Shown here piece by piece: positions 1,164-64,000 of a stretch of DNA of 64,000 bases; position 1 is the stretch's first letter, and every line of letters begins with the position of its first letter. The notes under the pieces were generated by a model. It saw only the letters and a list, made by a program, of their open reading frames with translations. It was not told the origin of the DNA and did not search any database. The position numbers and the translations under genes were made by a program. Source of the DNA: Blasia pusilla (Eukaryota); contig CM114271.1 of the NCBI GenBank assembly GCA_050084515.1, positions 25,668,001 through 25,732,000 of the forward strand, given 5' to 3'.

Positions 1164-1363
<200 letters not shown>

Positions 1364-1364
1364 G

Positions 1365-2500: not shown

Positions 2501-2574
2501 TACAGCACTTGGTTTCACAAGCAGATGAATCAAGTATATTTAAAATAGTTTTTTTGTACTGTTTACATGTTCAC

Positions 2575-16000: not shown

Positions 16001-16229
16001 CCATGTACTAGCCAAGAGGATACAACTGGGGCTAGATGGCATGGCGAGGTTGATGAGGAGATGGTGCCAGGTTGGCATGCATCCGCCTTTTTATGTTGGT
16101 TAGGGGTGGACTCTAGTATGGAGGATCACATGATATCTTACTCTAGTCAGAGGATAGATGGCTAGCCTTCAGATCCTAAGGTTGGAGATGGTGGTACGGA
16201 TCAGCGTGATATTCATGATGATGCGTTGG

Positions 16230-17649: not shown

Positions 17650-17822
17650 GAGAGGTAGATGACTTGATCTTTGCATGATATGAATTACAGATGTGCGACT
17701 AACGATGGGGCAACCTAGCACCCGGCCTTCTGATTCGGGCACCCAAGAAGGTGTATAGCATGTAGTAGATGTATAGGGCTACCTGGGAGTTAGAGGGACC
17801 TAACCGCCAATTAGGGGGGCGA

Positions 17823-18400
17823 GTTGTGGTACACTTGTGTTTGTGGATACTCTCGTCTATGTTATGTATGTATGTGAGTATGGTATGTCAGCGATGTATG
17901 TTGTATGACGATGTGGATTCGCACGACAGTTGTCATGACCATACAGATTATGTCGTAGAGTATAGTGCGTAGAGGCCATTCCTTATGTAGGACCGTAGTG
18001 GCTTGGTAGAGATGCGGTTTCATACATAGGGTTGGGGGTTACTCAGTTGGGGGTGACTTTCCCAATAGGGCCCGCTCTTAGGTTGGAGGATATAAGGTGG
18101 AATGCACTCAAAGAACAGTCAGTTCTTTGAGTTGAGCCTGTTGCGTTGGGAGTTAGCCTTGGTAGTGAGTAGAGCCCTTGGCTATGGTGTTTCCCGCAAG
18201 CTTCGACCTAGATTCTCCCATCGTGGAGTGGGTTTGGCTCGATTGTATGTGATTCTATACGTGTTTTATGACAGTAGGTCTTTCACGGATTTCAGTTGTG
18301 GTACACTTGTGTTTGTGGATACTCTCGTCTATGTTATGTATGTATGTGAGTATGGTATGTCAGCGATGTATGTTGTATGACGATGTGGATTCGCACGACA
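17823..18400 (+). repeat. E2 3' end: B1 (17823-17928) + gt + A2 (17931-18294) + B2 (18295-18400), preceded by PPT aggggggcga
   Basis: B1 and B2 are both 106 bp and essentially identical. Confidence 0.95.
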
Positions 18401-21400: not shown

Positions 21401-22088
21401 TGCGATGACGGTGGCGGCTAAAACAAAGAATCAACGGTCGTCGTGGAAGACCCTCCACTCCGTAATGGCGGCAATGGCAACCAAGTGTGGACAATGGCTG
21501 AACGCGGCTTTGAGCAGCGCTAGGCGGCGATGGAGGCCGAAGGTGGACCATTGAAGGAGACGGTTGACCATTGATGGTGATGGTGGACCATTGACCATTG
21601 ACCGTTGACGATGACTTTGACGGCACAGCGGCTAGTTTAGGGTTTCAACAATTTAACCCTAAAAATCGCCTTGCAATGGAAATTTTTCAAGATTGACCAT
21701 AACTTTTTGCTTGCAACTCCAAATGCTACTATCTTTAGGTTTCACATCATTGAAAAATATTTTAACCCTAAAAATTTGTAGTAAATCCCAACGCTACATA
21801 AATTTTGGCAACGCTCGCACTAATTTCTCCCAATAAAATGTGCTTCCGCAGCACCGGCATGGGGCAACCTGCCTCCATACTCAATCCCTATCAAAAATTG
21901 GGTAGCGCTTTTGCGCGCCACTCTTCCACACGAAAAATTGGCGAAGGAAACATCACAAGTAAGCGGTTCTTGCTCCGGTGCGTACTCCCATCAACCGCTG
22001 AATAGGGAATACAATCCCCAACCTACAAAACTAGCAAGTGACTAGCGAGCTCCTCGATGAACTCTCTTACTCACTCATTCTCTCTTTG

Positions 22089-22591
22089 TAAAATAAGATC
22101 CAATATCTCTCGCAACACCATAGTTCTCACATGTGTGCACTCTCACAATGTCAAACCAAACCCACTCTCCTAATGAGAGGATTGGGTTACACTCACAAGG
22201 CAAGAGACTGTAGTTCCGCCGCCTTGTCCCAAGAGGTTCAACAAAGAGAGAATGAGCTCTCAAGCTCTCTCCTTGAGGTATACCCCTCCCCTCTCCCAAG
22301 CTCTTTCCATGGTAATCTATGCTCCCAAGTCACCTCCTTGGATCTTGACCTGATGTAGGATGTCAAGGGCCACTTACCAAAAATAGAAAGTTGATCATAT
22401 ACTCAAAATGGTACTTGCCTAAAATAGTAAGTTTCTCAATATGGCTCCAAATGAACCGAAACGAAGGGGAAACCTGCTCTCTCAGATTTCTCGGGGCCTC
22501 AGTAGGTCATCTTCTACCTCCTGAGTCTGTCCTCCACTACTTGAGAAGACGTTCTACTAAATCTCACCGATCTATCCTAAAAGACATGACA
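22089..22591 (-). repeat. E1 repeat A1, homologous to the E4 A repeats
   Basis: Reverse complement aligns by eye with 52811-53324. Confidence 0.9.
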
Positions 22592-22713
22592 AATGTCTTA
22601 AAATCAAAGAAGATTGGAGGCCAAACTCACAAGAGGTGAAAATTGGAAGTATTACCTTAGCCTCTATTAGAGGAGAATCTCTACATAAAATAACGTACTA
22701 TGAGTTGACAAGT

Positions 22714-32921: not shown

Positions 32922-33670
32922 TGTCGTGCGCATACATATCGCTACACAACATACATCTACACCACACAACACCGATCTTCCCCACACACGGGTCGATCCA
33001 CACATGTACAAAAATCAACTCATACATATACATGGAGATCACACAACCCGGTAATAAAGAGTAGTAAAAACGGCACACCCGGCCTAAAACTCCACTCCTC
33101 AATCTACATCGGCATATCGAGCCTCGTCCACCCTATGCTATCAAGGAATCCGGAAGCTAGCACCCTAGTCCTAGCTCACACACATACAAAGGAGGTGCTC
33201 CAACGGCCCAACATGAGAAAGATGGTTTAGGAAAGCCATCTTCCTCTCTTATATAGGGTTGGGAAGGGCCAAAAGGCTCTTCCCCTAAAAATAGCCCTTC
33301 CCTTGGTAACCTGTGCGCACAGGTTACCAGGGGCGGGTGACCTGGTCAACAAGTCACTCGGATGTAAAAGACCTCAACATGAAAATTGTCAGAAACGACG
33401 TTCCTGACACAATGGACCTATCCTCAACCTCATCCGACACCGTGGGACAAATTTACACTCAAGATAGTCCGCTGGCTCCTACGCCCTATCCACGATAGAC
33501 CTCGGCCTATCAGCTACTCAGATGTGACAGCTGTTGTGCGCATACATATCGCTACACAACATACATCACTGATCACATCTACACCACACAACACCGATCT
33601 TCCCCACACACGGGTCGATCCACACATGCACAAAAATCAACTCATACATATATATGGAGATCACACAACC
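32922..33670 (-). repeat. E3 3' end B1-gc-A2-(4 nt filler)-B2
   Basis: B copies match apart from a ~12-nt indel and a few substitutions; A2 matches 42134-42608. Confidence 0.93.
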
Positions 33671-36600
33671 GCCCCCCTAGCTGGCAGTTGGATCCTCCCA
33701 ACTCCAGATAGAAAATATCACATCTCTCTAACATGACCTACTACCCTATACACATCTCGGACACATCCATCGTTCCGTGGGAACCATATCAAGAGGGGGG
33801 TCAGACATGATATATGCCACCCTTGAGAACAACCATCACATACCAACATGGTGGTTGGACCCCTCGCAGATCCGCACAACATACACCTCAAGCTTGCACG
33901 TACCACTACCAAGCTCGGATCCACCGTCCCATCTACGTTCGGAAGATGACATGGCGCACAATTGCGCACATGATCCTTCCAAACCATACCATCCCGTCCC
34001 TCCAACATGAGGACTCCGGTCGGTAATACCTCGCGCACACGTAGGATCGCGGCGCCTGCAGCGATGACATCTAGCGTCGTGGGTGCCGCTGCTTTGTAAA
34101 TACACGTAATCTCCAGGATGAAACCTCCTAATCCCTGGACGATAACCTCCTCCACGAATGGTCGCGTACCTCAATGTATCTCTATGCTGGGCAATAGCTA
34201 AGTTTTCAAAGGCCATAGGCATAACTCTACGAAAAACTTCTGCCCTCTGAGAACATGCTTGCACCCACACATCTGGATCATCAAGATCAAACACCTCCGC
34301 CATGACACGTCGAATCGCTGCAGGTAAATTTGGCTCTCTCCCAAAGAGCAAAAAGTATGGTGAAAATGACGCCAAGGATGCCTGCCGACTAAAGCGATAA
34401 CCCATAGCCAACCATGGCAACTATAGGTCCCACTCCCTCAACTGTCCCCGCTGCAAGCCATACTTGCGCAATCCTCTCTTCACCGTCTGTACCACTCTCT
34501 CCGCCAACCCATCCGCCTCAGGATGATCTTTGGACGTGGTGCGGTGATCTATCAGCTCCTGATCACACAAGGCCTAAAAACTCTCCCCTGAACTCGGTAC
34601 CCTGGTCAGTCAACACCTCCGCTGGTGCACCAAAGTAACTAAGCACACGATCTAGAAACGCATAAGTTGTTCCCTCGCTCGCCTTGTCTAGTAGTGCCAC
34701 CAACTCTATCCACTTGGAGAAATACTCCACCATGACCAACACGTACCTATGATGACGCCCTGTCAATGGCAAAGGTGCCGCAAAGTCTAAACTCCACCGA
34801 TAACCTAAACCCATAATCGGCAAATGATGTAACTGCGGAGTGGGAGCATTGAAGTATGCTGGCACTCTGTCACATACCATACATCTGGCCACAAACTGCT
34901 GTACCCCAGTATGCATGCCGCGCCACCAATACTGGAGTAAGCTGTAAGTACGCTTTACTTCGAAATGTCCCAACTCCTCATGGGCATGTCGCACTACACG
35001 TGCTCGCTGGGAAGGATGAGGTACCACTCGTATCCTACCATCTCCCCATACCCGCAAAATGTGAGTCCCCTCCCACTTGAACCTCTTGGCTCTCTGTAGG
35101 ATCCGATCCCGCTCCCTAGCACTCACTGTACTCGCAATGACGCCAATGCGCAAGAACTCCACAACCTCCACGTCGTCATGGATATCACGACCACCTGTCG
35201 CCTCCTCACTAACCTCCAGATCCAACCCCACCACTGGAGTCATCACCTCTGGCTGACCTGCCATAGTCAACCAACAAAGATAGGCAGATGCATGCCAAGC
35301 GGGCACCATCTCCTCATCACTCTCTCCGTGCCATCGAGCTCCTCTGTCGTCTCTCTGACTCAGACATGGGTTACGACTCAACCCATCCGCATCCTGGTTC
35401 AGCCGACCTGGCCTATGAACCACCTCAAACTCATACTCCTGTAGTAATAGAGCCCACCTGGCAAGCTTTCCCGCAAGCTTGTCGGACTCCATCAACCACC
35501 TCAACGGTTGATGATCAGTGATAAGTGTGAAAGGGTTGCCGAATAAATAGCACCTAAAATGTGCCACGGCCCACACTGCAACAAAGCACTCTCCCTCGTA
35601 GGAGCTGTACTTTGCCTCTGCAATGTTGTTCGATCGGCTCGCGTAAGCCACAAAAAACTCCCTCTGAGTAAGCACTGCACCTAGACCCAACATGCTCCAA
35701 TCCGTATGTAACTGGAATGGACGACCCCTAACCGGTCTCTGTAAAATGGGTGAGGACATCAACCTGTCCTTGAGCTCTTGAAATGCTCGCTCTTGATCAT
35801 CTCCCCACAACCAAACCTGATCAAGTCTCGTCAACAAGGTCAAAGACTTTGCGATCGCACTAAAACCCTTGACATACCGTCGATAGAAGTTCGCCAGTCC
35901 AAGAAATGCTCGGACTCGACTCACATCTGTAGGGCATGGAATCTGTGCAATAGCCTCTACCTTCGTCTACTGAATGCCTAACCCACTCGGGTATATGGTG
36001 TGTCCCAAGTACTCAATCTGCTCCTAAAAGAATCTGCACTTGCCTGGATGTAACTTCAGTCCATATAACTGCAATCGCCGAAAGACCTCCTCCAAGTGTC
36101 GCTCATGCTCCTCAAACGTGGAACTGAAGATAAGAATATCATCTATGTAACATCGTACAAAATCCAAGCCAGCAAGAATCCTATCCATCACTCTCTGAAA
36201 CTCTACAGGCGCGTTCTTCAACCCAAATGGTAAGAACCGCCACTGATACAAGCAATCTCTCCCAAACCGATCTATCCCCGAGAATGTTGTCTTCTCCCTG
36301 TCCTCCAACCTGATAGGAAGTTGATGATAGCTAGCACGGAGATCTAAAGTAGTGAAGATCTTTGCATGCCCTACTGCATCAAAGATCTCCTCAGGAGTAG
36401 GCATGGCGTACCGATCTGACCTCGTCTGTCGGTTGATAGGACGGTCATCTCCACACATCCGCCTATCCGTCCAATTGCCATACATATCCTTCTTCGCCGG
36501 CATGATTGTGGCAGATGCATACTCCCCATGTGATAACTCCACAAGTCCTGCCTCCAACAAGTCTTGACTCCTGCTCTGAATCAAGGCTCGCTCCATATCA

Positions 36601-37114
36601 GAATACCTGTAGGGTCGACGAAAGATCGGCGTATCACTAGCCAACTCAATCCGTATCCCGAGACCCTTCAGCGTACCCAAGTCTCTCATACTGAAGGAAA
36701 AACAACTGACATGCCCTCTCAGAAACCTATGAACTCACCGTCGCTCTCCTCCTATCAACTTGAGACCTATCACAGGCTCCCAAGTCTCCATCGTGACCTC
36801 ACTCGGAGAGGATGCAACCTCCGGCTTTGGTTGCTATGTAGCAACCCTAGCCACCTCCGCAACAGCCACTCCACTCTAACCACCTACACCATGCTCCACA
36901 TCCAAAAAATGAACATGTGCTACTCTAGCCGCCTTCGCACTCTCTACTCGAACGACGTCCCAGGAAGTCCATGGGTGCATATCTCTCCTCGTCTCGCCCC
37001 CAGCCAATGCCTGTATAGACCCTGTAGGCAATGGTCCAACTCGTGGACGTGACGGCATGGATGACACTTGCATCCATCTCGCTCAGCCCATACCTAGGTG
37101 ACTATCCATGTGAG

Positions 37115-38045
37115 ACGATCGAGGTCCATTTCCGCCCCTAACACTGTCTCCGTGATGCCTCGGTCATCCCTGGCACCGCCGTAGTACCGAGTAGTGAACC
37201 CCATGGCGGCCTCGCGCCATCATCTGAGGCTCCTCCAATGCTCCGGTCACCTCATCCCAAATCATGCTTGGCCCTCCTCGATGAAAGGCATGGGATCTTT
37301 GGGAAGCTCACCAACGAGGTAAGGTTGCCCTCAACTCCCCACCCTATTGGCCATGGCTAACGGTGGTCTATCATCCCGTGTCACCACCTGAGATCGACGC
37401 CCTGAGCCCAAAATAGCATCCACTATGAGATGTGGTGCTCTCTGGACTCCACCGTAAGCTCGACTCAGTACCTCTGATGGTATCAGGTTCGTCCACCACA
37501 GTCATGGACGATGGGCACGTGACCCAACTCTTGCTACATCTAACAACACAGCAAGTCCCAACCAGGACCTCACCTAATGTACACTCGTCATCACACGTGC
37601 ACGAGTGTCTCCCAACAATGGCACGTTCTCCAAAATGTACGCTGGAGAACATATCTGACTCTCCTGCAAGTGTCGTAATACTCGCAGCATCTCCCAAAAT
37701 ATCCCTAACCTCAGATCCTACAATCCAAATCCTCGGCCAGCTGATGAATGACCCTGACATGGCCATCCAACAATCACCAAATGAATGGTGCCAACTCTAT
37801 CTAAATCCTGCGCCCCCACCAAAGAGATGTCGGCGGGTAGCGTATGTTGGTATCCCCGTACTGCAGATACCGACAACAATTCAGGATACCTCTGGACCAA
37901 TCTCGCCGTGTGACGTAATGATACTTGCCCCGCGGTCTCATCTCTCTCCACATAAAGGTACTGATGCACCCGTATGCCCGCCTGCAATAGTGCAGCCAAT
38001 CCGGTGCTAATCCCTTTGAAGAGATCTAACACCCTAACACCCTCC
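37115..38045 (-). pseudogene. E3 DNMT3-like methyltransferase domain, in the same frame as the protease
   Basis: VRVLDLFKGISTGLAALLQAG, YLYVERD, LVIVGWPCQGHS. ORFs 38857-38417 (PR) and 38410-37718 share a frame and are separated by one stop. Confidence 0.92.
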
Positions 38046-41000
38046 TTTGGGCACTGCCACACAACAGGTGTGATATCCAGTGGGGTCAACGTCTCCACTC
38101 CAAGAGCCCGATCGCCACGTGACTCTCGCTGCTCTGGGACAAAAACATGACTCCACGCCTGCCTCACGAGGTCATCGGCACTCCTTTTTAGCTCCCGAGT
38201 CATACCCCACAATGGTGAAGAGGCCTCGCCAACATGGGAAGAGACACCCGCCATGGCCTGTCTCTCCGTGGGACTATCCGCTACCGGGACATCCTCCGCA
38301 TGTGCGATCCCCTCCAACAACTCTCTTGGCCAGCTAACACTACTTGTGAAAGCTGCCAACGTGGTCACAGACTCGCCTCGTGATCGACCACCTCGTCTCG
38401 CAAACTGCACGGGTAACTAACTCATCCGGCCGTCACCTGACCGCCATCCTGGCCGATAAGCAACGGTCTTCTCCCAGAAGTCAAGGATGAATCCTAGGGG
38501 ATATAACACTGTACTCCCCACCAACACATCGTACGACTCAACTGGTGTCGTAATCGCACGTGTGCGCACCATAGCACTATCCGTTGCATGCTTTGGCTGG
38601 ACTCTGACAACAATCTCCTGTCGAGTCATATACTGAGTGGGTGATACACCCCCAATCGAGGTCTGTATCTGGAAGGGACAAGGCTCAATGTCGGCCTTCC
38701 GTAACCCCAACACTAAACACGCCACCTTCCCTAACATCAAGGGTTGCGCTCCCGAATCAAGTAGGACGCGATGCGGGTGGTATATTGTCCCCGTCGGACT
38801 AACCAAGCGAAATACTCCACCTCGTTTATCCAATAACACTACTCCAGGTGTCACCACTGCTTGCTCTATGGCCGGTTAAGCTGGCATATCTACCAACTTC
38901 GCCGCCGCCGCATGCCATGACTCTGTAGGGAACGTCCCAAGCACCGGCTCTGAGGGCAATTCCACCACCTCCTCAACTACATCTCCACCTCACACAACAT
39001 GGCGCCCAACAAGAAGCAACCCCAACGCCGCCAACTCTATGGCGGAAAATAGCGGAGTCGACTCACTCTGGTGGCCACCTCCAACACTATGGTCGACATT
39101 GACTCCACTGAGCCGGGCATAGGAGTTGTCACTCCAACTCCTCGTGGCGCCGACGAGGTGCCCGAATCAGAGGCACCGCTAGTCGCCGAGGCACCATCGA
39201 TGGTGTGTGTAGTGCCCTCGATAAAGTGTGAACGATCGTGTGGAACCCTCGCCGCCGCCCATCGGTCCCCCCTCGGTGGGTCAATCTCAACTCCACCTCT
39301 CGATGGCTCCGTGCCTCGCAAAGACCGAGTCACCACCGCATTTGCCTCAACCTGGGCTGCACTACACATAAATCCCATCTTGGCGAGATCCTCACCCGGT
39401 CGAGTAAGAGGTAGAAGCCGAGTCACACTAGCCGCCGCAGACTCGTGCCGTTTTCTAAGCCTGCATCATCGTCATGGCAGCAATCCTCTGCTCCAATTGA
39501 TCGATGCGTGAGAGAAGTGCCAGCTCTAGTGCTCCTGCTCCATCTCCTTTGGCTGGTGGTGGTCCTCTACCACCACGTCTAGGAAGAACTCCCCGACCTC
39601 CTCCAGGACGACCGCCCCCAGACCCTCGGCCTACCTCTAGACGTGCCCCTCGGCGAAGGTCAAAACATCTATCCCTAGTGTGACCATATCGGTGGCAATG
39701 GTCACACTGGTGCTGTGGTGGGGCCATCCTCTATGGCTCTTGAGCAATCGGAGGCGCTGGTGGTCCTCTCCCATACTGTGGGCAGTCTCTCTGCCTATGG
39801 GCCATTCCACACGTCCAACAAGACCACATCGCTCCCTGCTAGGCAACATATGTAGGTGCGGGTTGTTGCCTCATAGGCTCACGGTACCCGCCCTGCTCTC
39901 TAGGCACACAGGCCCGCTCCCGTGGTACAAGTGCTCGCTGTGGCACCTGTGGGGTCACCGTCGCTTGTGGACCCGTCGACTCTCGAGAAAATCCAGCGGT
40001 CACTACCTGCTCCTCACTCATGTTGAGCTCAATACGCTCAGACAACTCAAAGACCACCTTCAATGTTGGCTTCGCTGTGGGAATCAGCACCGCATCTCGG
40101 ACTCTCCTCCGTAGTTCTCGGTCCAGAACCCCGTACCAATATTGGACTGACTGCGCCTCAGTCACTCCAAACGTAGCAATGATCAGCCTCCTTATGCGTG
40201 TGAATGCCTCTCTCAGACTCTCACCCGATTGTCGCTGAAAGTCCTCAGAGACTCTTGACTTGTCGGTGTGTACATACAGTAGCTCTTCCCCAACGCCGGA
40301 AGAACTCCTTTGTGGGGCTGAAGTTGGGTGGCCCTCTACCACAGAGGTCTCTCGCCACATCTTTGTCTCACTGCCCTCCTCTCCATCTAGTCTCCGGGCT
40401 GATGGTGCGGGTCTCTCTCCTCTCACAATCCCTCATATGCCTCGCGACCACTGGTGGACACATACCCTGGAGCCCAATACATCCTCCAGGCATCGATCTC
40501 TACTGAATATAGTGATCGAAACTCCAAGTAGTCATCCATCGGAGGACCCTCCAAGTGCTGGAACAACCCCTTCCATGCCATGAAAGGGTTGAACAGTGTC
40601 GGGGTCCGTATCTCTTGGAAGTCGCACCATGTGTCGAACTCCTGGATAAAATCATCTAAGTCGATCGTGCCCACTGCACCCGAGAAACAACGCATGCCCC
40701 GATGGCCCATGTCGTCCATCTCCTGCCAAGTACTATTGTCTCTGTCTGTGATCTCATCACCAGACCCAGTGTCGAGTGATGACGATCCAGCCACGGATGG
40801 ATGTCGAGGTAGCTCCTCACTGGTAACCCCTCGGTATCTCACTCCACTCCGTGTCACACCACTACTACTGCTCGTACTACCCCGTTCTTCCGAACCCTGG
40901 AAGAACGTCGTGGTGACAAACCCTGTCTCACCCGCTCAAGCACTCAGACTTACCGAGAGTCTCCCACACGCCTCACTAGCTCACCTATGCTAACATCAAC

Positions 41001-41254
41001 CCCGTGATGACATACCCGGCCTCACGCACGCTCAACACTCGGGCTCACCATGAGCCTCCCAATTGACTCTCCTAACCTAGCGACACTCTCTCGGGTCATA
41101 CACGCGACCCCTACTCGGCAACTGCCGTATATCCACCAACATGCTGCACATGAAAAGAATCTACATTTGTCACCATCACTACACCCATCTAGCACCAACT
41201 ACTACCCAATACCCAGCATTCTAAATCACACACGATAAGTGCGGGAAAAGGGAC

Positions 41255-41685
41255 TCGAATGGGGGGCATCGGCCCCCATTCGAGGGGGGCATCGGCCCTT
41301 GGCCCGTGCTCCCAACTTGCGGGAGAACAACGGAGGGAGGGGAGGGCCCGCGGCCCTATGCGGCCCTCCCCAAGTGCGCGGAAAGGGAGGGGGCGTCGGC
41401 CCATGGCCCGTGCTCCCAACCTGCGGGAGAACAATGGAGGGAGGGGAGGGCCCGCGGCCCTATGCGGCCCTCCCCAAGTGCGGGAAAGGGAGGAGGGGGG
41501 GGCCGTCGGCCCTTGGCCCGTGCTCCCAACCTGCGGGAGAACAACGGAGGGAGGGGAGGGCCCGCGGCCCTCCCCAAGTGCGGGAAAGGGAGGGGGGGGA
41601 GGGGGTAAGGGTCCGCGGCCCTATGCGGCCCTTGTAAATGTGCGGGGTGGGGGAAGGGCCCTCGGCCCTATGCGGCCCTTGTAAC
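41255..41685. repeat. GC-rich tandem repeat (~3 x ~110 bp plus partial units) in the E3 5' leader
   Basis: Unit ggcccgtgctcccaacctgcgggagaacaacggagggaggggagggcccgcggccc... Confidence 0.9.
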
Positions 41686-42133
41686 TCCGCTCTCTCCGTC
41701 CGCCTGTCCGCGCCCCTCGCCCGTCCGTCGTCCGCCTGTCTACCACCTCGTGACCCTTGGCTCTTGACTCCGTGGTCCTCCGGCCCTCGCCCGTGACCTA
41801 ACCCTAGACCGGCCGCAACCTAGCTAGCCGTCTTTACTTAACAGCCCCCGGCGGCTGCAAGACCCAAACCTTCCTTTCTTCTCTCTCTCGACACCCTCAC
41901 TTGCGTACACCCGACGCCCCACCACACACTACACTCGGCTGCTGTCCCCCATCAATCCGCACCTGCAAAATCTGAGAAAAAATGGACAGCGCTTCCGCCC
42001 ACGGCCTTCCAAACATAAAAATGACAAACACCCGCAACACACGCGTCTCCAGGGGCTCCCGACCAAGGCAACTCGCTTGCCTACCTGCAAACAACAAATT
42101 CCCACCAGCCCCCTAACATCTTTCTCATGTAAA

Positions 42134-42608
42134 AATAAAGAGTAGTAAAAACGGCACACCCGGCCTAAAACTCCACTCCTCAATCTACATCGGCATATCG
42201 AGCCTCGTCCACCCTGTGCTATCAAGGAATCCGGACGCTAGCACCCTAGTCCTAGCTCACACACATACAAGGGAGGTGCTCCAACGGACCAACATGAAAA
42301 AGATAGCTTAGGAAAGCCATCTTCCTCTCTTATATAGGGTTGGGAAGGGCCAAAAGGCTCTTCCCCTAAAAATAGCCCTTCCCTTGGTAACTCTACAAGA
42401 CAGTCACCGGGGCGGGTGACCTGGTCAACAAGTCACCTGGCTGTAAAAGACCTCAACATGAAAGTTGTCAGAAACAACGTTCCTGACACAATGGACCTAT
42501 CCTCAACCTCATCCGACACCGTGGGACAAAGTTACACTCAAGATAGTCCGTTGGCTCCTACGCCCTATCCACGATAGATCTCGGCCTATCAGCTACTCAG
42601 ATGTGACA
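42134..42608 (-). repeat. E3 repeat A1, with TATA-like ctatataag on the minus strand
   Basis: Direct repeat of 33053-33529. Confidence 0.93.
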
Positions 42609-51410: not shown

Positions 51411-54400
51411 TACCTAATAGTGCATTCTATGAAGCTATCGAGAATGCATGCATCATCGGGCCAACTACTCATGTACAACCACGAGTTGAGTTACCTACCA
51501 CTTTTCCTAATCAAGATGAATATGAAATCGTAGATAATTCTTGGACTCTTCCCCACGTTGGAGATGAAGTGAGGTCAAGAGTAGATGACGTGTCTTCTAC
51601 TCTCAATGGAGTCGTGTTGCCTCCACAAAGGGTTGTAAGACAGAATACATTAATCTTGCAAGAAGGCCAAATTTCCAAGGGAGTGATATTAGGAAGTTGT
51701 GATTACAAAGGAGTTTGAATCATATTAGCGGTCGTCATACATTAGGTTCCACGACAGAGGTATGCCCCTCAAGTCGTGCCTTACATTGGAAATGTGAAAT
51801 GGTCAAAGGTACAAAGTTTAATGAATCACCATACGGTACATGTTGTAACCATGGGAAAATACAATTACCCCTCTTGAAATTGTCTTCTCCATTCTTGAAA
51901 TCGTTGATTTCAGGTGTTGGTCCTAGAAGTCTTCATTTTCTTACACATGCCCGAGCTTCCAATTCTCCACTTTAGCTTGCATCAACTAGAGTGCATGTAA
52001 ATGAATAAGTTGGTGGTACTGGACACTTTAGGGTCCAAGGCGGTATTTATCATTCCATTGGACCCTTATATCCTAATATAGGGGAGCAACCCCAATTTGC
52101 TCAACTCTACAATCATGATGCTGCAAATGAATTGGAGAATGGGGGAAGAGTTATGTGTAGATCTTTTGATATAAACATCTTGAAAGGGCTTCAAGACATG
52201 TTACATCAATGCAATCCTTATATCAAGATCTTTTGTCATATGGCATCTGAAGCAAGTGATCTTCATATGTTGATTGATCCTCAAGGAAAGTAAGATAGAT
52301 CTTGATGCAAAGTGTTATAGCTTACCAACTGCTTCTGAGGTTGTTGCTATTTTGTCGGATGGTGGAAGTGAAAATGTTGACCATCGTGATATAATTGTAT
52401 GATCGCATGGAGGATGAATGAGGTGTATATCTGACCTCAATGAAGCATACATTCCATTACACTTTGTTCTATTATTTATCTATGGCGAAGCTGGTTGGCA
52501 TCCTGGAATACCATTCAAAGGACTTGGAGACTATAGAACATCTGAAAAATTGGACTATGTTATTCATGGGGAAGAGGGACATATTTAAACCTTCACATGA
52601 TTGGATGGATGAGGAAAGAGTTGACGATGATGCTATTATGGAAAGAAAGACAAAGAGTGTTACGGTTGTGCAATTTGCATGTTTTCGACTTCAAATGTGG
52701 ATTGGAGGCAAAGACGACAATCGCTTATTGCGGTTTGGTCGACTTACTGAAGAATATATGGTTGACCTCTATGCTATTGTAGAGATGCAATGATTATCAT
52801 GGGTTCGCTTTGTCACGTCTTTTAGGATAGATCGGTGGGATCTAATAGAGCGCCTTCATGAGTAGTGGAGGACACACCCAGTAGGTCGAGGGTGACCTGC
52901 TGAGGCCCTTGGAAACCTGAGATAGCAGATTTCCCCTTCGTTTCGGCTCATTTGGAGCCATATTGAGGAACTTACTATTTTAGGTAAGTACCATTTTGAG
53001 TATATGATCGACTTACTATTTTTGGTAAGTGGCCCTTGACCTCCTACATCAGGTCAAGAGCCAAGGAGGTGACTTGGGAGAATAGGTTACCATGGAGAGA
53101 GCTTGGGAGAGGAGAGGGATATACCTCAAGGAGAGAGAGCTTGAGAGCTCATTCTCTCTTTGTTGAACCTCTTGGCATGAGGCGGCGGAGCTATGATACC
53201 TTGCCTTGTGAGTGTAACCCAAGCCTCTCATTAAGAGAGTGGGTTTGGTTTGACATGAGAGAGAGTGCACACCTTTGAGAGCTATGGTATGAGATAGTGG
53301 AGAGAGAGATTGGATCTTACTTTACAAAGAGAGAATGAGAGAGTGAGAGAGCTTCATGGGGGAGCTCGCTGGTCACTCACTGTTTTTGCAGGTTGGGGAC
53401 CGTGTTCCCCGTTCAGCGGCTCATGGGAGTGCTCACCGGAGCAAGGGCTGCTTTCATTACTCTTTGCATTTGCCGATTTTTCGTGTGGAAGAGTGGCGCG
53501 CGGAAGCGCTGCCCAATTTTTGATAGGGATTGAGTACGGGGGCGGGTTGCCCCATGCTGGTGCTCTCGGGAGCACCATGTAGCTTGCTGATTTGTATTTT
53601 TACAGATGTTACATTTTCGTTGGGAGAAATCAGCGCGGGAGCGCTGCCGAATTTTGTGTAGGAGAAAGAGACATTGGGCTTTACGACAGTCCCCGTCACT
53701 TTTTACTGAAATGTCCAATTCTAAATATTTTTTGATGGTAGCGTAGATCGTGAAGCTGTACACGCTATGCAATAAACAGTGCACAATTTGGAGTTGCAAG
53801 CAAAAAGTTATGGGCAATCTTGTAAAGCTGCCATTGCTAGGCGATTTTTAGGGTTAAATCGTGCAAACCCTAAATCAGCCGCCACACCGGCGGCGGCCGT
53901 CGCCATCATAGTCACCGTCAACGGTCGACGGTCAACCATCACAATCAACGGTCAACCATCACCGTCATCGGTCGGCCATCACCATCAGCGGTCAACCGTC
54001 ACTGTCAAGGGTCCACCGTCCATTGTCCACCCTTTGGGTGCCATTGCCGCCATTACAGAGTGGAGGGTCTTCCATGACGTTCGTTGATTCCTTGACTTGC
54101 GTCGCCACCACATACTTTGTTTTGGCCGCCACCGTCATCGCAATTTCTTCATCAACCAGTGAAGGCAGATGACCTCCGGTTATGGTGTTTGAGTTTTGAT
54201 TTCATGCTGCTATGTTGTGATTGGTAGCCGCTCGACGACGATCGAGTATCGTGCCGTGACGCCCGTAGCCGCAACGCGACGCCGATTGCCGCGCCGTGCC
54301 ACTTGTGGCCGCACCGCACCATCTCGATCGCGGAGCCGCACCGTCATTGTGGAGCTGAGTGTGGGATTATTATTGATTGAGGAGGGTATGCCGCCGAGTG

Positions 54401-57400
54401 CCGCATCCCACCATCGCGGGCCATGCCGTTCGTAGCCATTCCGTGCCGCCTGCAACGCCGCACCGTTCCGCTGGGACCGCACTGTCTATCGAGGAGTTTT
54501 GAGCAGCATCAGTACGGGAGGAGTATGACTTGCTGATTGGAGGAGTTGTCTCCACGATCGAGTTGGGGTTGAGATTTGCGATTCTTTGAGGAGCGACATC
54601 GACATGTGTTCAGTTACCCTATTACGGTCCTTTACCCTGCACGTGTGAGGGATTCTGGGATTTATTTGGGGATATTGGGTGTGTGGATGCTAAGAGCATC
54701 ATTTATGTATGTGGTTTAGGGGACATAGACCTGTGTGGGATGTCCGGAGTTGAGGGTAGGTTGTCGATGAGATGATAGCCTCGTCGATTTGCCGCACCAC
54801 GCCGCGTGTTGCCGCACGTTACACGTCTCGGGGAGAGAGAGTGTAGATCGAGTGCCGCATGTTTGGGATGAGTGATTGAGGGATTCCTCACGAGGTTCAG
54901 AGTGATCGGGTGAGAGGGGCACGAGGGTCATCACGGAGTCTGTTCGGGACTTTGAGAGGCGAGGTGGTGAACCCGAGAGTAGCTCTAGAGGTTTTACGCG
55001 GAGTGGCGCGAGGTTTTGAGGGTCTCCACGTGAGGGACCACCTCGACCTCCTTCTGTGTCATCGTCAAACGAGGGGGAGGGTGTAGAGGAGTTTGTGAGC
55101 ACATCGCCACACATTGTGAGTGGTCCTACCAGTTGGGTGTACAAGATGGACGACCGGGGTAGAGGACCGCGTAGGTTTTCAGGTGCAGTAGGCACGATTG
55201 AGTTGCACGATTTTATAGCAGAGTTTAGGAGTTGGTGCGACTCCCAGCGGGCCAGGAACTCTAGAGAGTTTAACCCGTTTACAGCATATATGGAACGGTA
55301 TGTTCCAGCATTTAGAGGGGGCGCCCATGGACGATTACCATGAGTTCTCTCAGAGATATGCATGTGAGATCGAGGCGTGGAGGCTCTACTATGACCCACA
55401 TTATGTGTCATGGACGGAGCCATTCCCAGATGAGGAGGAGGAGGAGTCAGGAGAGGCTACTGCCTCTTCCACTAGTGACGTTTTAGGAGGGATCACTCGC
55501 ACGGGAGCAGTTGCACCGTCTAGTCGGGTTCGCCCGAGTTCAACCCCGTGGTTGAGTTCTTTCTTTGAGTTGAGGGCGAGCTACCGGGGGTACGGACGGA
55601 GAAGTTGCGGAGCATCCACGACTTCAGGCGCCGGGTGAGAGTTTGCGTGAGGCTTACACTCGCTTGCGCCGGTTGATCAACGTCACTCAGGGGGTGACAG
55701 AGGCTCAGGCTATCCAGTCATGGTATGCGATGCTGGACCGGACACGGGTGCGGGAGGGGGTGCTTCTTATGAACACCTCCCCTACGTTGAGAGATGTTTT
55801 TAGGACCGCCGAGAACATTGAGCGCAATATGGCGGAGGAGAGCGTAGCCACCATGGGTTCTGGCGAGCGATCCACGATTATCGCACCACCTATGCAAAGA
55901 ACGTGGACTCCGAGATAGGTCGACTGTGGCACCACGAGCTCAGGGAGGATACCGAGAGGCCGTGCCACAGAGACCTGCGCCTTCATATGCGGCTCAGCAG
56001 CAGCCGCCTACTATTGCTTGTTGGTCATGTGGTGAAGCCCATCATCAGCGCGATTGCACTCGTCAGGGTCATGGACGTGTGCCTCAGCATGGAGGAGGAG
56101 ATGGTGTTGCACCAGGAGGTTATCAGTGTGATTATTGTCAGAGGTATGGTCATACACGCGCGAGGTGTTTTAGTTTACATCCTGAGTTACGTCTGGACCG
56201 AGGGCTAGAGAGGGCACCAGAGCGAGTAGCCGGTCCGGGTGGGCCTAGAGATCGTGCTCCAGGTGGTCCCGTTGGGGGACGAGGAGCTAGAGTTGCCCGA
56301 CAGGGTGGTGGAGCTGCCCGTGGAGGAGGTAGAGTACCACCACCTAGACGCGCCGAGGGAGATGCCGGACGTGAGGCTGGGATGGCTGGGATGATACAAC
56401 AGCTACAAGAGCAGATTGCCGCTATGGCATTGAGGTTACCCGATGCCGGATCCGTGGCATCGACATCATATGGAGCAGCCAGAGATGTGGAGGATCCTGG
56501 ATGGATGTGCGGGGTTGCCCAAATGGAGGCCGCGCTTGCGGTTGTGATGCGTGGAGCAGCGCAGAGTTGGATCCACGAGGGGAAGCTTGATGAGCAGACT
56601 AGGCTTCCTCAATCTTTCACGTTGTCCGAAGCGATGAGGACCCCATCGATGGGTCCTCATCAAAGTTCCTAGAGAGTTGGTAATGTTGTTGGTGTGCAAG
56701 CACGGAGGGCGATGGGAGAAGCGAAAAGTGCGGCGACTCCTATTGTTGATGTTCGGGAGGGGCATGTGTCGAGCACGTTGTTGGGGCGGCCACCGTTGTA
56801 TACCGCACTCCTTTATTTTTACGCCCGATGTTGTGACGTTGGGAGGTACGCCCGCCGAGGCTTTTGGCTGGCCGCTTCACTATGTGAGCGAGTTGGAGTT
56901 CTGCATCACGTTGAGGTGATTGCAGAGGAGGTGATGGACCTGCCCTTGGAGCGGATGCTCGGGCCATCCACGTCGATTCATGGTAGGTGCGGGTGCTAGG
57001 ATGGCGGAGATGCCCGCTAGACCCGCGATAGAGCATGCCATGGCTTCTCCTGGTATTGTGTTGTTGCTGGATAACCGAGAGAGGTCTTCCGGTTGGTGAG
57101 TCCGGAGGTAGAGCTTTTAGTCGCGGTGCGTCTTGTTGATTCAAGAGCGCAACCCTTGATGTTGGGAAAGCGTCATTGAGGATTGGGCTTGAGCGAGCCG
57201 ATGTGGAGTGTTGTCCATTTCGGATCTGAGACATCCTTGGGTGGAGCGAGTACCACCAAGATATATCACCCGACAGAGGTCGTGGTGAGGATTTGCCAGA
57301 CACCCTACGAGATGAGTCCGTAGTGCGCGCCAAGGCGATAGTGGCTGATGCAGAGTCCTACGACGTCTTGGTTGGTGGAGCAGTGTTATACCCGATGGGG

Positions 57401-57839
57401 TTTTCCTTGGATTACTCGGAGGATTCAGCGTCCTACAGACCAGGATGGCAGTCAAGTGATGGGCGCCTTAGCTCATTACCCGTTCGATTCACAGGTGCAG
57501 TGATCGAGCAACGGTCAGGAGAGATGGCGACCTTAGCAGCATTTAGCAGTGCCATCACTTGGCCTAGTGATTTGATTGAGGGACATATCCAAGCAGAGGA
57601 TACTCCCGTTCCTGACATTTCTATGGAGAGAAGTGTTATGGTAGCTGCATCATTCCATGGAGGAGAGGTGCCGCTGTGGGGCTCGACTGAGGAGCTGCAA
57701 CGATTGGCAGATGAGCACGTGCAGACTGCGTGGAGCGAGGCGTTTGCACCAGAGCGTGACGGGTCTGAGGAACCCGAGGTAGCAGGGAGTGCTACGATGA
57801 CACCCTTGGATACTACACCCATTGTGTGGTGTACCCCGG

Positions 57840-58790
57840 AGGAGGGTATTTGAGTGTTAGATCTCTTTGGAGGGATTAGCACCGGGTTAGCTGATGTTTT
57901 ACAGGCAGGAGTGCGAGTACAGCAGTACCTATATGTGGAGAGTGATGATGTTACGAGGAGCGTCTCACTACGACATGTGGCACAATTACGCCTACGTTTT
58001 CCCGACTTATTGTCTACGTCCGCAGTACAGGGGTATCACAGTTCCCTACCGAGGGATATTTTGTTGTTGGGGGCGCAGGACTTAGAGCGGGTAGGGACCA
58101 TTGATTTGGTCATTGCCGGTTGGCCATGTCAGGGCCAATCGAGTCCGGACGAGGCAGCGGGTTGGCGACACTCGGTCCAGGTTGTTTTGGGAGATGTTGA
58201 GGGTCTTACGGGATTCTTGCAGAGCACCGCCTCGTTCTCCAGCCTACATTTTGGAGAATGTGCCGATCTTAAGAGACTCCAAGTCACGGGTCGTGACGAG
58301 TGCTCATCAAGTGCGTGCCTGGATCGGCCCACCAGTGTTCTTGGATGCGGCGAGTGTAGGTTCTAGAGCCCATCGCCCGCGTCTATGGTGGACCAACTTG
58401 GTGCCCCATGCGGTGTTATGGAGGGCGTATCAGAGTGGAGCGCCCCTTCCCTTTGTTAGTGGATTCCATTTTGGATCCAGTCGCCGATCCTGAGCGGTGA
58501 GGCACGATGATCGACCACCGCTGACTGTGGTCAATAGGCTCACAAACGCGGGCAGCCTTGCCCACGTTTGTGAGTTTTCCTGCTTCCTATGCATACAAGG
58601 AGGCCGGTCCTGGCTTGGTTTGGGATGACCAGGTTCAGCGGTTGGTGGAGCCCAACGCCGCGAGAGAGAGAGCGGCGATGGGATTTCCACAGGAGTGACG
58701 GCGGTACCATCGATGTCGAGAGGCATCACGACGCCATGTCTTGGGTCAGAAATGGACTGAACGACTTGACATGGATCCTCGGCTTGGGAG
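57840..58790 (+). pseudogene. E4 DNMT3-like methyltransferase domain
   Basis: VLDLFGGISTG, YLYVESD, DLVIAGWPCQG, SRLFWEMLRVL, YILENVP, DAASVGSRAHRPRLWWTNL. Confidence 0.92.
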
Positions 58791-61700
58791 TGGGTGGCGT
58801 CGTATGAGATCGCGACAGATCACAGCGGTTGCGTTGGTGAGCCCCATGCCTACCAAGACGGTGGAGGCAGTGGCTGGGGGCGAGACCCGAGGAGATCTAC
58901 GCACCATGGGAGATCGGGAGAGACACCCTTGGACTTCTTGGGATGTTTTGAAGGTACGCAAGGAGATGATAGCCACAAAGATCGGCGTGGTTTGAGCCTT
59001 TCGCACGTGGAGGAGATCAGAGTTTGCAGTTGGCTGCAGGAGAGCGGCCGAGTGTTGTTGTTCGAGACGGGGTTGCACCATAGCAACCACCGATACCCGC
59101 GCCGGAGAGTCCTACCGTAGTCACGATGGAGACTTGGGAGCCAGATATGGGCCCTAAGTTGACAGGAGGAGAGCGGCGCCGAATACATCAGTTCCTCAGG
59201 AGTTATAGGAGCCGCTGCGTTTAGCATGGAGGATTTGGGCACGCTGAAGGGACCGGGATCCGCATTGAGTTGTCAAGTGATATGCCGATCTTCCGAAGCG
59301 ACCCTGCAGTACAAAGATGATATGGAGAGGGCTCTAATTGAGTAGGAGCCAAGACTTGGTCGGAGCGAGGACTAGTGGAGATGTCGCATGGGGAGTATGC
59401 ACCGCCACCTTTGTCATGCCCGCCAAGAAGGATGTGCATGGCAATTGGACGGATAGGCGGATGTGTGGGGATTACCGACCTATCAATCGCACGAGGAAGT
59501 CCGATAGGTATGCCATGCCCACCCTCGAGGAGATCTTTGATGCGATTGGTCATGCAAAGGTCTTGATTCATGGGATTTTTGGATACCATCACCGCCTATC
59601 GATTGGAGGACAGAAGAAGACGGCATTTTGGGGCATCGATCCTCACGGGAAGGATTGTTTGTACCAGTGGTGGTTCTTACCATTTGGGTTAAGAACGCCC
59701 GGCTGAGTTTCGAGAGGGTCATGGATAGGATCTTGGCTGGTCCGGATTTTGCTAGGTGTTAAATTGATGACATCGTAGTCTTTAGCGCCACGGTTGAGGA
59801 GCATGAGCAACATCTAGAGGAGGTGTTTCGGCGATTGCAATTACATGGGTGAAGCTACATCCAGGCAAGTGCAAGTTCTTCTACGACCAGATTGAGTACT
59901 TGGGTCATACGATATACCCAAGGGGCCTTGGTGTTCAAAGCAGACGAAGGTAGAGGCTATCTCACGCATTCCACGCCCTCTGAGATGTGAGCCGTGTTCG
60001 CGCATTCATGGGATTGGCAAACTTCTATCGGCGTCGTCAAGGGATTGATTCGATTATGGCGCTGACCTTGCTCACCAAGGTGGATCACGAGTGGCTTTGG
60101 GGGATGAGCGAGGAGCGAGCATTTTCGATTGCTCAGGGCGAGTTGACGCCCGCACCCATCTTGAGGAGACCGATCGGGCGTCCTTTCGATTGCACATAGA
60201 TTGGAGCATGTTGGGGCTTGGAGCGGTGCTCACCCAAAGCATGATGATGAGGGTAGAGAGTTTGTGGTGGCTTACGCTAGCCGCTCAAACAACGCTGCAG
60301 AGGCTAATACACCTCGTATGAGGGTGAGTGCTTGGGCTGCGTGTGGGGTGTCGCGCATTTTAGGTGTTACTTATTCGGCAACCCCTTTACCATCATCATC
60401 GATCATCAACCATCTGAAGTGGTTGATGGAGTCCGACAAGCTTACAGGGAAGCTTGCGAGATCGGCTCTATTGTTGCAGGAGTATGATTTTAGGTGGTAC
60501 ATAGACTGGAACGCTCAACCAGGATGCAGATGGGTTGAGTCGTAACCCATGCCCGAGTCGAGATCACGTGGAGCTCGATGGCATGGAGAGAGTGATGAGG
60601 AGTTGGTGCCAGGATGGCACGCGTCAGCCTATTTAGGCATGTTGGCTATGGAGAGCCAGAGTGTGGAGACTTTGATGGCGAGGTCTAGTGGAGAGTCTTT
60701 GGATCCCGAGGCGGTGAGGACACGACAAGTGGCGAGATATTCATGATGATGGAGTAGTCTTAGAGTACCTTCGTCTTGGCAGCCTTGCGAGCACCATGGA
60801 TGCTAGAGAGCGGGATCGGATCCCCCGGGCCAGGCCGGTTCCGTTGGGGGGACACATGTTTTGAGGGTTTGGGAGGATGGCGAGTACGCGTAGTGCCGCA
60901 TCCTTTGCAGAGAGCACGACTAGTGCAGCATGCCCACGAGGAGTTGGGTCACTTTGGGGTGAAGCGGACGTATAGCTTGCTCCAGATTCAGTATTGGTGG
61001 CGAGGCATGCAGACTGACATTCAACATTTTGTTGCCAGGTGCATGGTGTGTGATCGGGTCCGAGCATCGTTCAATGCTCCGACTCCTGATTGCATCCATT
61101 ACCGATCATGGGCTTAGGGTATAGATGGAGTTTGGATTTTGCAGGACCTTTGCCCTTGACGGAGCGTCACAGTCGTTATGTGTTGGTGATGGTCGAGCAC
61201 TTCTTGAAGTGGATCGAGTTGGTTGCATTGCCTGACAAAGCAAGTGAGGGAGTAGCTTATGCCTTCCTTGACAGAGTCTTTGAGTCATTATGGCGCACCT
61301 GGTGAGTTGTTGATGACCAGGAGTACCGAGTTTGTGATGAGTTCCAGGCCTTGTGTGATGAGGCGCGATCGACCACCGCCACGACCGCGAGATCACCCCG
61401 AGGCGGATGGATTAGCGGAGAGAGTTGTGCACACGGTGAAGAGGGTTTACGCAAGTATGGCTTGCAGAGAGGTCACCTAGGAGATTGGGACCTCCGTTGC
61501 CATGGTTGGCGATGGGATCTGGATTCAGTGGCCAGGCATCCTTAGCGTCTTTTTTCACCGTACTTGCTACTTTATGGCGAGAGCCGATTTACCTCGGCCA
61601 TTCGTCGAGATCTTTGGTGAGTCTTGAACCTTGATGACCTAGATGTATGGGTGCGAGCATGTTCTCGAGAGGGACTGAGTTATTTCGAGAGTGATGCCCA

Positions 61701-62023
61701 TGGCGTTCAAGAACTTGGCGATTGCACAAAGATCGGGATACGTTGAGGTATGCGACTATTCGAGGTGGTGGTTATCGACCAACTATCCGGAGGTTTCATC
61801 AAGGAGATTATGTCTATTTGCAGCGACGGCACCGCGGCGTTGGATGTGATCTGCAGGCGCACTATCACGAGTGCGTGATATTTTGCCATCGGGTGTTCTC
61901 TTGCTGGAGGGACGCGATGGTATGGTATGGAAGGACCATGTGCGTAATTGTGCGCCATGTCACCTTCATAACATTGGTGGTACAGTAGATCCGAGCTTAG
62001 TAGTAGTTCCTGCAGGCTTACGT

Positions 62024-62158
62024 TGTATGTTGTGTGGTTCTGCCCGTGGTGCGGCCACGATGCTAGTCTGTGATGGGTGTTCGAGAGGATGGCATATGGC
62101 ATGTTTGACGCCACCTCTCACTAGGGTTCCTCAGGGACGATGGATGTGTCCCAGATGT
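62024..62158 (+). other. E4 integrase C-terminal PHD finger
   Basis: CMLCGSARGAATMLVCDGCSRGWHMACLTPPLTRVPQGRWMCPRC, intact C4HC3. Confidence 0.92.
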
Positions 62159-62345
62159 AGATAGAGAAGGTAGTTCTATATTCCGACTTGTGTCTATGAC
62201 ATGGATGACAAGGAGGCGACTAACGATGGGGCCACATGAGCACCCGGCCTTCTTGCTCTTAGCGTCCGAGAGATGTATGTCATGGTAGGTAGGGATAGAT
62301 GGCTATCTAGAGTTAGAGGGACCTAACCACTAGCTAGGGGGGCGA

Positions 62346-63119
62346 TTGGAGATATTTTGGTTCTTCTTGTCTCGTTTTTTGGATGCCATGAGTTAGCATG
62401 GGATCATGCGTGTTTGTGTGTGTGTTTGGTGACAGCGATGTATGTTGTGTAGCGATGTGTATGCGCACGACAACTGTCACGTCTTTTAGGATAGATCGGT
62501 GGGATCTAATAGAGCGCCTTCATGAGTAGTGGAGGACACACCCAAAGATGGGGTCGAGGTGACTGCTTTGAGGCCCTTGGAAACCTGAGATAGCAGATTT
62601 CCCCTTCGTTTCGGCTCATTTGGAGCCATATTGAGGAACTTACTATTTTAGGTAAGTACCATTTTGAGTATATGATCGACTTACTATTTTTGGTAAGTGG
62701 CCCTTGACCTCCTACATCAGGTCAAGAGCCAAGGAGGTGACTTGGGAGAATAGGTTACCATGGAGAGAGCTTGGGAGAGGAGAGGGGTATACCTCAAGGA
62801 GAGAGAGCTTGAGAGCTCATTCTCTCTTTGTTGAACCTCTTGGCATGAGGCGGCGGAGCTATGGTACCTTGCCTTGTGAGTGTAACCCAAGCCTCTCATT
62901 AGGAGAGTGGGTTTGGTTTGACATGAGAGAGAGTGCACACCTTTGAGAGCTATGGTGTGAGATGGTGGAGAGAGAGATTGGATCTTACTTTATTGGAGAT
63001 ATTTTGGTTCTTCTTGTCTCGTTGTTTGGATGCCATGAGTTAGCATGGGATCATGCGTGTTTGTGTGTGTGTTCGGTGACAACGATGTATGTTGTGTAGC
63101 GATGTGTATGCGCACGACA
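62346..63119 (+). repeat. E4 3' end B1-ac-A2-B2, preceded by PPT aggggggcga
   Basis: B1 and B2 are both 127 bp; A2 matches 52811-53324. Confidence 0.95.
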
Positions 63120-64000
63120 GCTTGAATCAAAAGGAGTTAAGGGTTGAATTATATCAAGTTTTAAAGGATGTCATGCATCGACATGATGTGGATGGTCGAA
63201 GGGTTGGGAGACGCATTGTATTACCTTCTTCTTTTACTAGAGGGCCACATCATATGCATCAATTGTATCAAGATGAAATGGAAATTGTAAGACATTTGGG
63301 GAAGCCAAACTACTTTTTGACAATGACATGCAATCCTAAGTGGGAGGAGATTACACCAGCCTTATTACTTGGTCAATCAGCTGTGGATAGACTAGATCAG
63401 GTTATACGGGTTTTAAGAAGAAAAAGAAGGAGTTGTTACAACTTATCATTAACAAGAAAATATTGGATCGAGTTCTAGGATGCATCCATGTTGTGGAATT
63501 TCAAAAAAAAGATCTCCTGCACGTGCATGTTCTTATTATTTTAGGCCATGAGGATAAACCACGAACCACTTTTGATTATGATAGTATTATTTCAGCATAA
63601 ATCCCCAATCAATCTACCCATCCAAGGTTGTATTCTACTGTCGCTAATTGCATGATTCACGGGCCATGTGGAGTATTAAATCCAAGTGCACCATGTATGG
63701 ACAAGGAAACCAAAAAATGTACCAAAGGCTACCCTGAGCCTTTTGCGGCTAGTACCACAGAGATGGAAGATGCTTACCTGATCTATCACAGGTAAGGAAC
63801 TTTTCATCCTAGATTATTTTTATGACTATAAGGGATATGAGGCCAATGTGATGATTTCATGCTTTGTAATTTTATTTTTTTAGATTGGAGAATGGGAGGG
63901 CGATACTTAAGCGCAAACATTCATTGGATAATCGTTGGGTTGTGCCCTACAATCCTATGTTCTGCGCGTTCTTTGATTGTGACATTAATTTGGAGAATAC

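Follow-up and report, generated by a model that had tools for sequence, protein, structure and literature searches.

We found that the PHD finger at the end of pol works as an accessory part of the integrase in a Ty3/gypsy lineage that is old, belongs to the green lineage and encodes a DNMT3-like methylase as well. The domain exists and selection acts on it: our evidence directly covers its presence, position, conservation and fold, the purifying selection that it is under and its relationship to PHDs that read unmodified histone H3. It probably reads chromatin. We consider it somewhat better than an even bet (a probability of about 0.55) that the PHD tethers the integrase to nucleosomes via the N-terminus of H3, in a chromodomain-like role that would bias insertion away from K4-trimethylated promoters.

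The window, by which we mean the whole 64,000-nucleotide stretch that was analysed, is eukaryotic DNA with a G+C content of 47%, and self-blastn identified in it four nested or adjacent copies (E1–E4) of one Ty3/gypsy LTR family, which makes up more than half of the DNA (Table 1). E1 is divided into two pieces by E2. Each of the complete copies (E2, E3 and E4) has TGTC...GACA termini, a perfect 4-bp TSD and the repeat layout A-coding-B-A-B, with a purine-rich AGGGGGG run directly before the first B, and the repeat preceded by this run begins ~180 nt past the pol stop. The clean 4-bp TSDs at all three complete insertions indicate that the integrase worked. The family has the domain order PR-DNMT-RT-RNaseH-IN-PHD, and the Pfam matches to E2 follow it as gag (weak), DNA_methylase, RVT_1, RT_RNaseH, Integrase_H2C2, rve and PHD. 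The paired A repeats are 95–97% identical within copies, from which we conclude that the copies are old; stops or frameshifts lie between RT and PHD in E2, E3 and E4, none of which has an uninterrupted pol, and an intact IN-PHD fusion was seen only in homologues (e.g., P0002, P0004 and the 2811-aa P0266). The homology of E1 to E4 ends at position 5997, which corresponds to the start of the E4 integrase, and a tblastn search of the region to the left of E1 (window positions 1–6000) matched no IN-PHD remnant. The interior of E3 also holds a 104-nt unit in three tandem copies (41285–41602), downstream of the 5' repeat on the element strand.

Table 1. Retrotransposon copies, their domains and neighbouring features, in window coordinates.
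Feature	Position	Strand	Evidence or remarks
UBA-like ARIH1-type domain in open frame	394–900	−	PF21235, E 5e-7
Element E1, 3' part	5997–8622	−	DNMT to RNase H; ~80% DNA match to E4; truncated before IN-PHD
Element E1, 5' part	18405–22597	−	LTR and gag side; self-blastn
Element E2	8623–18400	+	gag, DNMT, RT, RNase H, IN, PHD; TSD GACG; sits in E1
E2 DNMT domain (two frames)	12964–14362	+	PF00145, E 1.2e-5; motif IV GWPCQG
E2 integrase C-terminal region (helices, SH3-like barrel, PHD)	17062–17646	+	195-aa open frame
E2 PHD finger, intact	17509–17643	+	PF00628, 42.8 bits, E 5.5e-11
Element E3	32922–42608	−	self-blastn; TSD TATT
E3 PHD finger, 1-nt frameshift inside	33752–33885	−	tblastn pieces 34059–33772 and 33799–33752
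E3 DNMT domain	37400–38047	−	motifs I, IV and VI kept; internal stops
Element E4	52811–63119	+	self-blastn; TSD GCTT; TGTC...GACA termini
E4 repeats	A 52811–53324, then coding region, B 62345–62475, A 62475–62992, B 62992–63119	+	
E4 DNMT remnant	57785–58406	+	motifs I and IV kept; tblastn with P0266, alignment
E4 last pol open frame	61850–62164	+	end of integrase SH3-like domain, 15-aa linker, PHD
E4 PHD finger, intact	62024–62158	+	PF00628, 46.5 bits, E 3.7e-12
Helitron Rep remnant interrupted by E4	63124–63475	+	upstream half 52422–52810

According to the original prediction, a C4HC3 PHD ends the pol of E2, E3 and E4 and no chromodomain follows it, and our searches confirmed both statements. 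A C4HC3 pattern search of the six frames of the window gave exactly two intact matches, the fingers of E4 and E2, and both were also matched by PF00628, for which the gathering cut-off is 24 bits. The frameshift in the E3 finger falls after 'CLTP', and the last third, in another frame, reads '...DPPLDMVPTERWMCPRC'. E2, E3 and E4 each have a single residue between the last Cys and the stop codon, and the region of the last pol open frame of E4 matches E2 (17352–17651) without gaps at 70% of DNA positions. The Chromo profile matched none of five C-terminal proteins and none of 19 reading-frame pieces downstream of the three PHDs at E≤1, and the chromodomain family PF00385 was absent from the 120 listed of 134 homologues of the last 195 residues of E2. 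The further claim that the PHD replaces a chromodomain applies to its position alone, and no relative with a chromodomain was recovered. An ESM Atlas search that skipped PHD clusters yielded only generic animal and fungal gypsy clusters, with no chromodomain-bearing sister among them, and the outgroups recovered contained no chromodomain.

The 134 homologues came from a search with the last 195 residues of E2 against longer proteins, and PF00628 was present in 118 of the 120 listed. The best named matches were to Marchantia polymorpha (83% and 78% identity), and the other named hosts among the listed homologues were Calypogeia, Sphagnum, Haematococcus, Pleodorina, Volvox and Cymbomonas, to which two more were added, Hariotina reticulata and Coleochaete scutata, the match in the latter being a complete ORF from a transcriptome. 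In the closest relatives, which are of streptophyte type, the protein ends 1–15 residues past the finger, as it does in the window. Algal relatives (e.g., P0033, P0041, P0045 and P0050) have 100–400 residues after the PHD; these tails, which the streptophyte-type elements lack, gave no Pfam match at E≤0.001.

As for the kind of PHD, the best PDB sequence matches (60 listed) were to CHD4 PHD1/2, PHF12, KAT6A/B, KDM5A/B PHD1, DPF2/3 and MLL3/4, together with PHF21A (BHC80), ATXR5, BAZ2A/B, AIRE and UHRF1. An AlphaFold2 model of the last 195 residues of E2 (mean pLDDT 84.8) consists of helices, an SH3-like barrel (residues 77–127) and a PHD (residues 150–194), with a pLDDT of ~90 for the barrel and the PHD; residues 150–195 have values of 90–96 and adopt the PHD fold. 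When this PHD was compared to the PDB by Foldseek, the PHDs of ATXR5, BAZ2A and BHC80 were matched with target TM 0.70–0.85 and rmsd 1.0–2.0 (e.g., target TM 0.85 for ATXR5-H3, and rmsd 1.0 over 47 columns for BHC80), and there were also matches to BAZ2A with an unmodified H3K4 peptide and to UHRF1 with an unmodified H3 tail. The pair of barrel and PHD loosely resembles the Tudor-PHD cassettes of PHF1, MTF2 and UHRF1, at a high rmsd. Unmodified H3 or H3K4 is named in the PDB entry titles for BAZ2A and UHRF1, and the other PDB matches are ones that we take to belong to the same subclass of unmodified-H3 readers. The finger had been predicted to be of the type that reads unmodified H3 tails, and the solved proteins nearest to it in sequence and in fold do read such tails. 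The Asp of CDxC, which we take to be the contact to R2 of H3, and the PxGxW loop, presumably the anchor for A1, are present in E2, E3 and E4, and among 110 pattern-selected PHDs the CDxC Asp was found in 106, and the Pro, Gly and Trp of PxGxW in 107, 88 and 97, respectively.

A different reading of the same domain is that it binds a partner other than H3, such as a host chromatin or import factor, nucleic acid or a part of the intasome, and serves assembly or nuclear entry. PHD fingers with non-histone partners exist, and the window-type fingers are basic (net charge +3 and +4) and without N-terminal acidic residues: E4 reads PAGLRCMLCGSARGAAT and E2 reads RASLRCMLCGSAGNATR, with no D or E before or just after the first Cys pair. 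BHC80 and AIRE presumably contact K4 through acidic residues near Cys1, and the algal relatives are mostly acidic there (consensus D at −3, E after Cys1, and a DDE loop). The lack of D or E N-terminal to CDxC makes a K4me0 contact uncertain for the window PHDs, and these residues suggest that the specificity for partner or mark may have shifted in the streptophyte branch. The median PHD charge was 0 for the terminal-PHD subgroup (n = 32) and −4 for the algal subgroup with a tail (n = 152); net charge was dropped as a decisive argument since K4me0 readers range from about −2 to +3. The strong conservation of the signature for recognition of H3 A1 and R2 (the CDxC Asp and the PxGxW loop) speaks against a non-H3 partner, as does the fact that the nearest solved relatives are all H3-tail binders, and we regard such a partner as rather unlikely.

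In the tethering mechanism that we prefer, where we infer that the PHD binds histones, which mark it favours and whether it influences the choice of target, the PHD, fused ~15 residues behind the SH3-like C-terminal domain of the integrase, would bind the N-terminus of histone H3 and so hold the integration complex on nucleosomes. Tails without K4 trimethylation would be preferred by the PHD, and this would keep new insertions from favouring active promoters, a bias like the one that the chromodomain imposes in chromoviruses.

The predicted pairing of a PHD with a methylase in one retroelement was upheld: the PHD coexists with a DNMT that keeps its motifs, and an alignment showed motifs I, IV (GWPCQG) and VI (ENV) in E2 and E3. 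The best PDB matches of the E2 DNMT were to DNMT3B and DNMT3A, with E-values no better than ~1e-3, over motif IV, and the second half of this domain had no PDB match. P0266, an intact polyprotein of 2811 residues from a metagenome contig, is colinear with all four window copies and has the order PR (1004–1095), DNMT (1380–1481), RT, RNase H, IN and PHD (2765–2808). In this window type of element, the DNMT is located between PR and RT, and the ~1,300 residues that part it from the PHD include RT, RNase H and IN. Many DNMTs were missed by Pfam, and we used a local phmmer search with two DNMT regions on 81 fetched proteins holding RT, IN and PHD. This identified a DNMT-like region in 58 of them, placed in the interval between RNase H and IN in 52 and upstream of RT, as in the window, in six; the 23 proteins without such a region were mostly ORFs starting just before RT. 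The architecture of the algal proteins, with the DNMT directly upstream of IN, gives the order DNMT-IN-PHD. One family member, P0157 (2710 residues), has CCCH zinc fingers (PF00642 and PF18044) on the gag side, besides DNMT, RT, IN and PHD.

A scan with the homologue P0008 against 1.84 billion cluster representatives (50% identity), from which the best 150 were kept, showed IN followed by PHD in 64, of which 49 had a DNMT-like region, and neither PHD nor DNMT in 76. We rejected the latter 76 as a sister group: the 12 of them that were scanned, in a set of 17 proteins, were mostly long gene models joining several gypsy copies, and these ranked high because their scores were summed over those copies. 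In a FastTree phylogeny of RT-RNase H plus IN (94 rows, drawn from the fetched proteins with both of these regions, some of them near-duplicates, with a single outgroup row), the 91 rows with a post-IN PHD and/or a DNMT-like region formed one clade (support 99), in which 85 rows have the PHD and six the DNMT-like region alone; five of the PHD-bearing rows have no detectable DNMT. The type with the DNMT between RNase H and IN formed one inner clade (62 rows, support 100), and the type with the DNMT before RT, which includes the relatives of the window copies, was found in the basal groups. PHD and DNMT thus both map to the base of the 91-row clade, and we suggest tentatively, because of the one outgroup and the method used, that their pairing is ancestral to the clade and that the DNMT has moved once. 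The two proteins sister to this clade, P0236 and P0243, carry an adenine methylase of Dam type (PF05869) in the interval from PR to RT, and their PHD is placed ahead of the integrase, after RNase H.

In cellular DNMT3, the ADD, a GATA-like plus PHD module, lies directly before the methylase in one mature protein. The retrotransposon resembles it in that a DNMT3-like methylase and a domain of the kind that reads unmodified H3 are encoded together in one gene; here, however, the PHD is C-terminal and set apart from the DNMT by RT, RNase H and IN, and probably also by processing. It is possible to imagine the PHD as an ADD-like gate for the DNMT of the element, which would read H3K4me0 and license or direct methylation of the new copy or its surroundings, and would not act in site choice. 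The frequent co-occurrence of PHD and DNMT-like regions (58/81 proteins and 49/64 IN-PHD representatives), their shared placement at the base of the tree, the DNMT-IN-PHD order in the algal architecture and the kept DNMT motifs are all consistent with such a gate, but co-occurrence can be plain shared ancestry, and there are the five PHD rows with no detectable DNMT to account for. In addition, the ~1,300 residues between the window-type DNMT and the PHD, and a Pfam search that matched neither ADD_DNMT3 nor a GATA-like part, make the ADD-DNMT3 analogy that had been drawn for these elements a weak one for the window architecture. As an analogy it fits the algal DNMT-IN-PHD order better than the window order, and we judge the gate to be quite unlikely. 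A related idea joins the methylase to the tethering reading: PHD and DNMT would be a 'stealth' kit conserved since before the chlorophyte/streptophyte split, with the PHD picking nucleosomes whose H3 is unmethylated at K4, the very state in which de novo methylation can take place, and the DNMT marking the new copy, and the DNMT would have been relocated once with the pairing unbroken. On this idea, the combination of a Dam-type methylase and a PHD in the sister lineage would point to repeated selection for methylase-plus-PHD combinations in retroelements. We hold this to be doubtful.

The original prediction also counted the landing of E2 and E4 inside other transposons as consistent with targeting. 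Both did land there: E2 interrupts E1 and E4 interrupts a Helitron ORF, and a 4-bp TSD flanks each of the two insertions; the Helitron remnant was matched by Helitron_like_N (E 2.5e-24) from profile position 47, and its Rep frame continues across the empty E4 site with one stop. The flanks of E3, which are AT-rich, and the two inter-element stretches gave no Pfam match at E≤0.01. However, these are two of three insertions, in a window more than half of which is this one family, and they carry no weight: landings in transposable elements are expected by chance because the DNA is dense in them, and selection after insertion yields the same pattern. With n = 3 in such a window we dropped them as evidence of targeting.

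The neighborhood of the cluster bears on one more reading, that the PHD reads H3K4me3 and steers insertion to active promoters. Many PHD fingers do read H3K4me3, and the UBA-like open frame is probably an exon of a host E3 ligase gene (UBA_ARI1) a few kb from the transposon cluster. Nevertheless, where we place the cage Trp for K4me3, E2 and E4 have Gly (SRGWH), as do 101 of the 110 homologues, a small residue there presumably meaning that there is no aromatic cage, and the residue preceding Cys1 is A, P or R. Moreover, none of the 60 listed PDB sequence matches is known as a classical K4me3 reader. A reader of K4me3 is therefore very improbable.

Comparison of the copies to each other gave Ka/Ks ratios for E2 against E4 of 0.16 (45 PHD codons) and 0.15 (104 codons), and of 0.07 for E3 against either, all of them rough as dS is saturated (~1.6). 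By these ratios the PHD evolved between the copies under purifying selection and is not a relic. None of the eight zinc ligands varies across an alignment of 53 rows (with 52 homologues picked from the 120 listed). That the PHD merely rides along, as a host fragment picked up by the element and without a role, would suit the decay of every window copy but is already contradicted by the Ka/Ks ratios (0.07–0.16), the ligand alignment and the tree, with the PHD retained from prasinophytes to liverworts, and we find it barely credible.

RNA reads from three runs fell on E4 (174, 206 and 221 reads) at low depth, with the PHD region included. Most were 95–99% alike to E4 and more than half fit only partly, which indicates that they derive from sister copies and not from E4. 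The depth over 61675–62408 was 2.7–4.2 for reads with the first mate on the minus strand versus 0–1.8 on the plus strand, a bias that fits sense transcripts if the libraries are of the usual stranded type. Within 60237–60417, reads from the three runs skip 75 and 81 bases, and these skips are most likely indel differences of expressed sister copies rather than splicing.

In most of a wide clade of the green lineage, the integrase PHD is accompanied by a DNMT, and the texts searched do not discuss this association; the published Gypsy-DNMT3 family also extends, with the present copies, to liverwort-like genomes. If the tethering reading is true, the chromodomain would no longer be the only natural reader domain of LTR-retrotransposon integrases, the PHD being a second one aimed at a different mark; the DNMT-carrying Gypsy elements would be less puzzling, and the PHD would offer a compact module for chromatin-directed integration tools. 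Histone-mark maps exist for Marchantia.

Compared by description, the streptophyte Gypsy-DNMT3 elements already published gain a new member here, one of liverwort type. KnitGypsy-Dnmt3 is presented in the main text of PMC5890265 as a Gypsy LTR element with a DNMT3-like domain in pol, and the Fig. 4c legend of that paper (de Mendoza et al. 2018) gives its unusual repeat layout as A-coding-B-A-B; the name Gypsy-DNMT3 recurs in the text of bioRxiv 10.64898/2026.05.21.726589. On these descriptions, the likeness consists in the DNMT inside pol, the A-coding-B-A-B layout in E2, E3 and E4 and a streptophyte-type host, and the difference is that the host here is liverwort-like, given the Marchantia matches at 78–83%. 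The PHD has no mention in the main text or text supplement of PMC5890265, and it was also absent from the text of PMC6317226 and PMC3350952 (plant LTR classifications) and of PMC12344493.

PHD fingers as such have precedents in transposable elements. The relevant passages of PMC8557442 describe them as common accessory domains of C. reinhardtii elements and report them in REM1, CR1, Rehavkus and Chlamys PLEs, so that the precedent in algal LTR elements to which the original prediction pointed is there in print, and bioRxiv 10.1101/2021.11.30.470311 refers in general terms to fusions of PHD and Chromo with RT and integrase domains. The present case resembles those in these passages, where chromatin targeting is likewise suggested for a PHD inside a transposon protein, but differs in that a large clade has conserved the PHD where the integrase ends, at its C-terminus, and pairs it with a DNMT.

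The DAM-LTRs or 'EpiLTRs' of bioRxiv 10.64898/2026.05.21.726589 are described there as LTR retrotransposons with a DAM and/or DNMT4-like methylase plus chromodomains, and so they, too, combine a DNA methyltransferase with a chromatin reader. In the text of that preprint the PHD domain is absent and the readers are chromodomains, whereas P0236 and P0243 have Dam plus a PHD before IN. The chromoviruses, chromodomain-bearing Ty3/gypsy elements such as MAGGY and Tf1 (Gao et al. 2008, as cited in the Grau-Bove preprint), are a parallel in the proposed role. The Pfam families SH3_Tf2-1 and Integrase_p58_C gave no match in the PHD lineage at E≤0.001. Both kinds of element have a small histone-reader domain behind the C-terminal domain of the integrase, with the same proposed tethering role; in the chromoviruses the ligand is H3K9me, whereas the reader here is a PHD, with the unmodified N-terminus of H3 as its predicted ligand.
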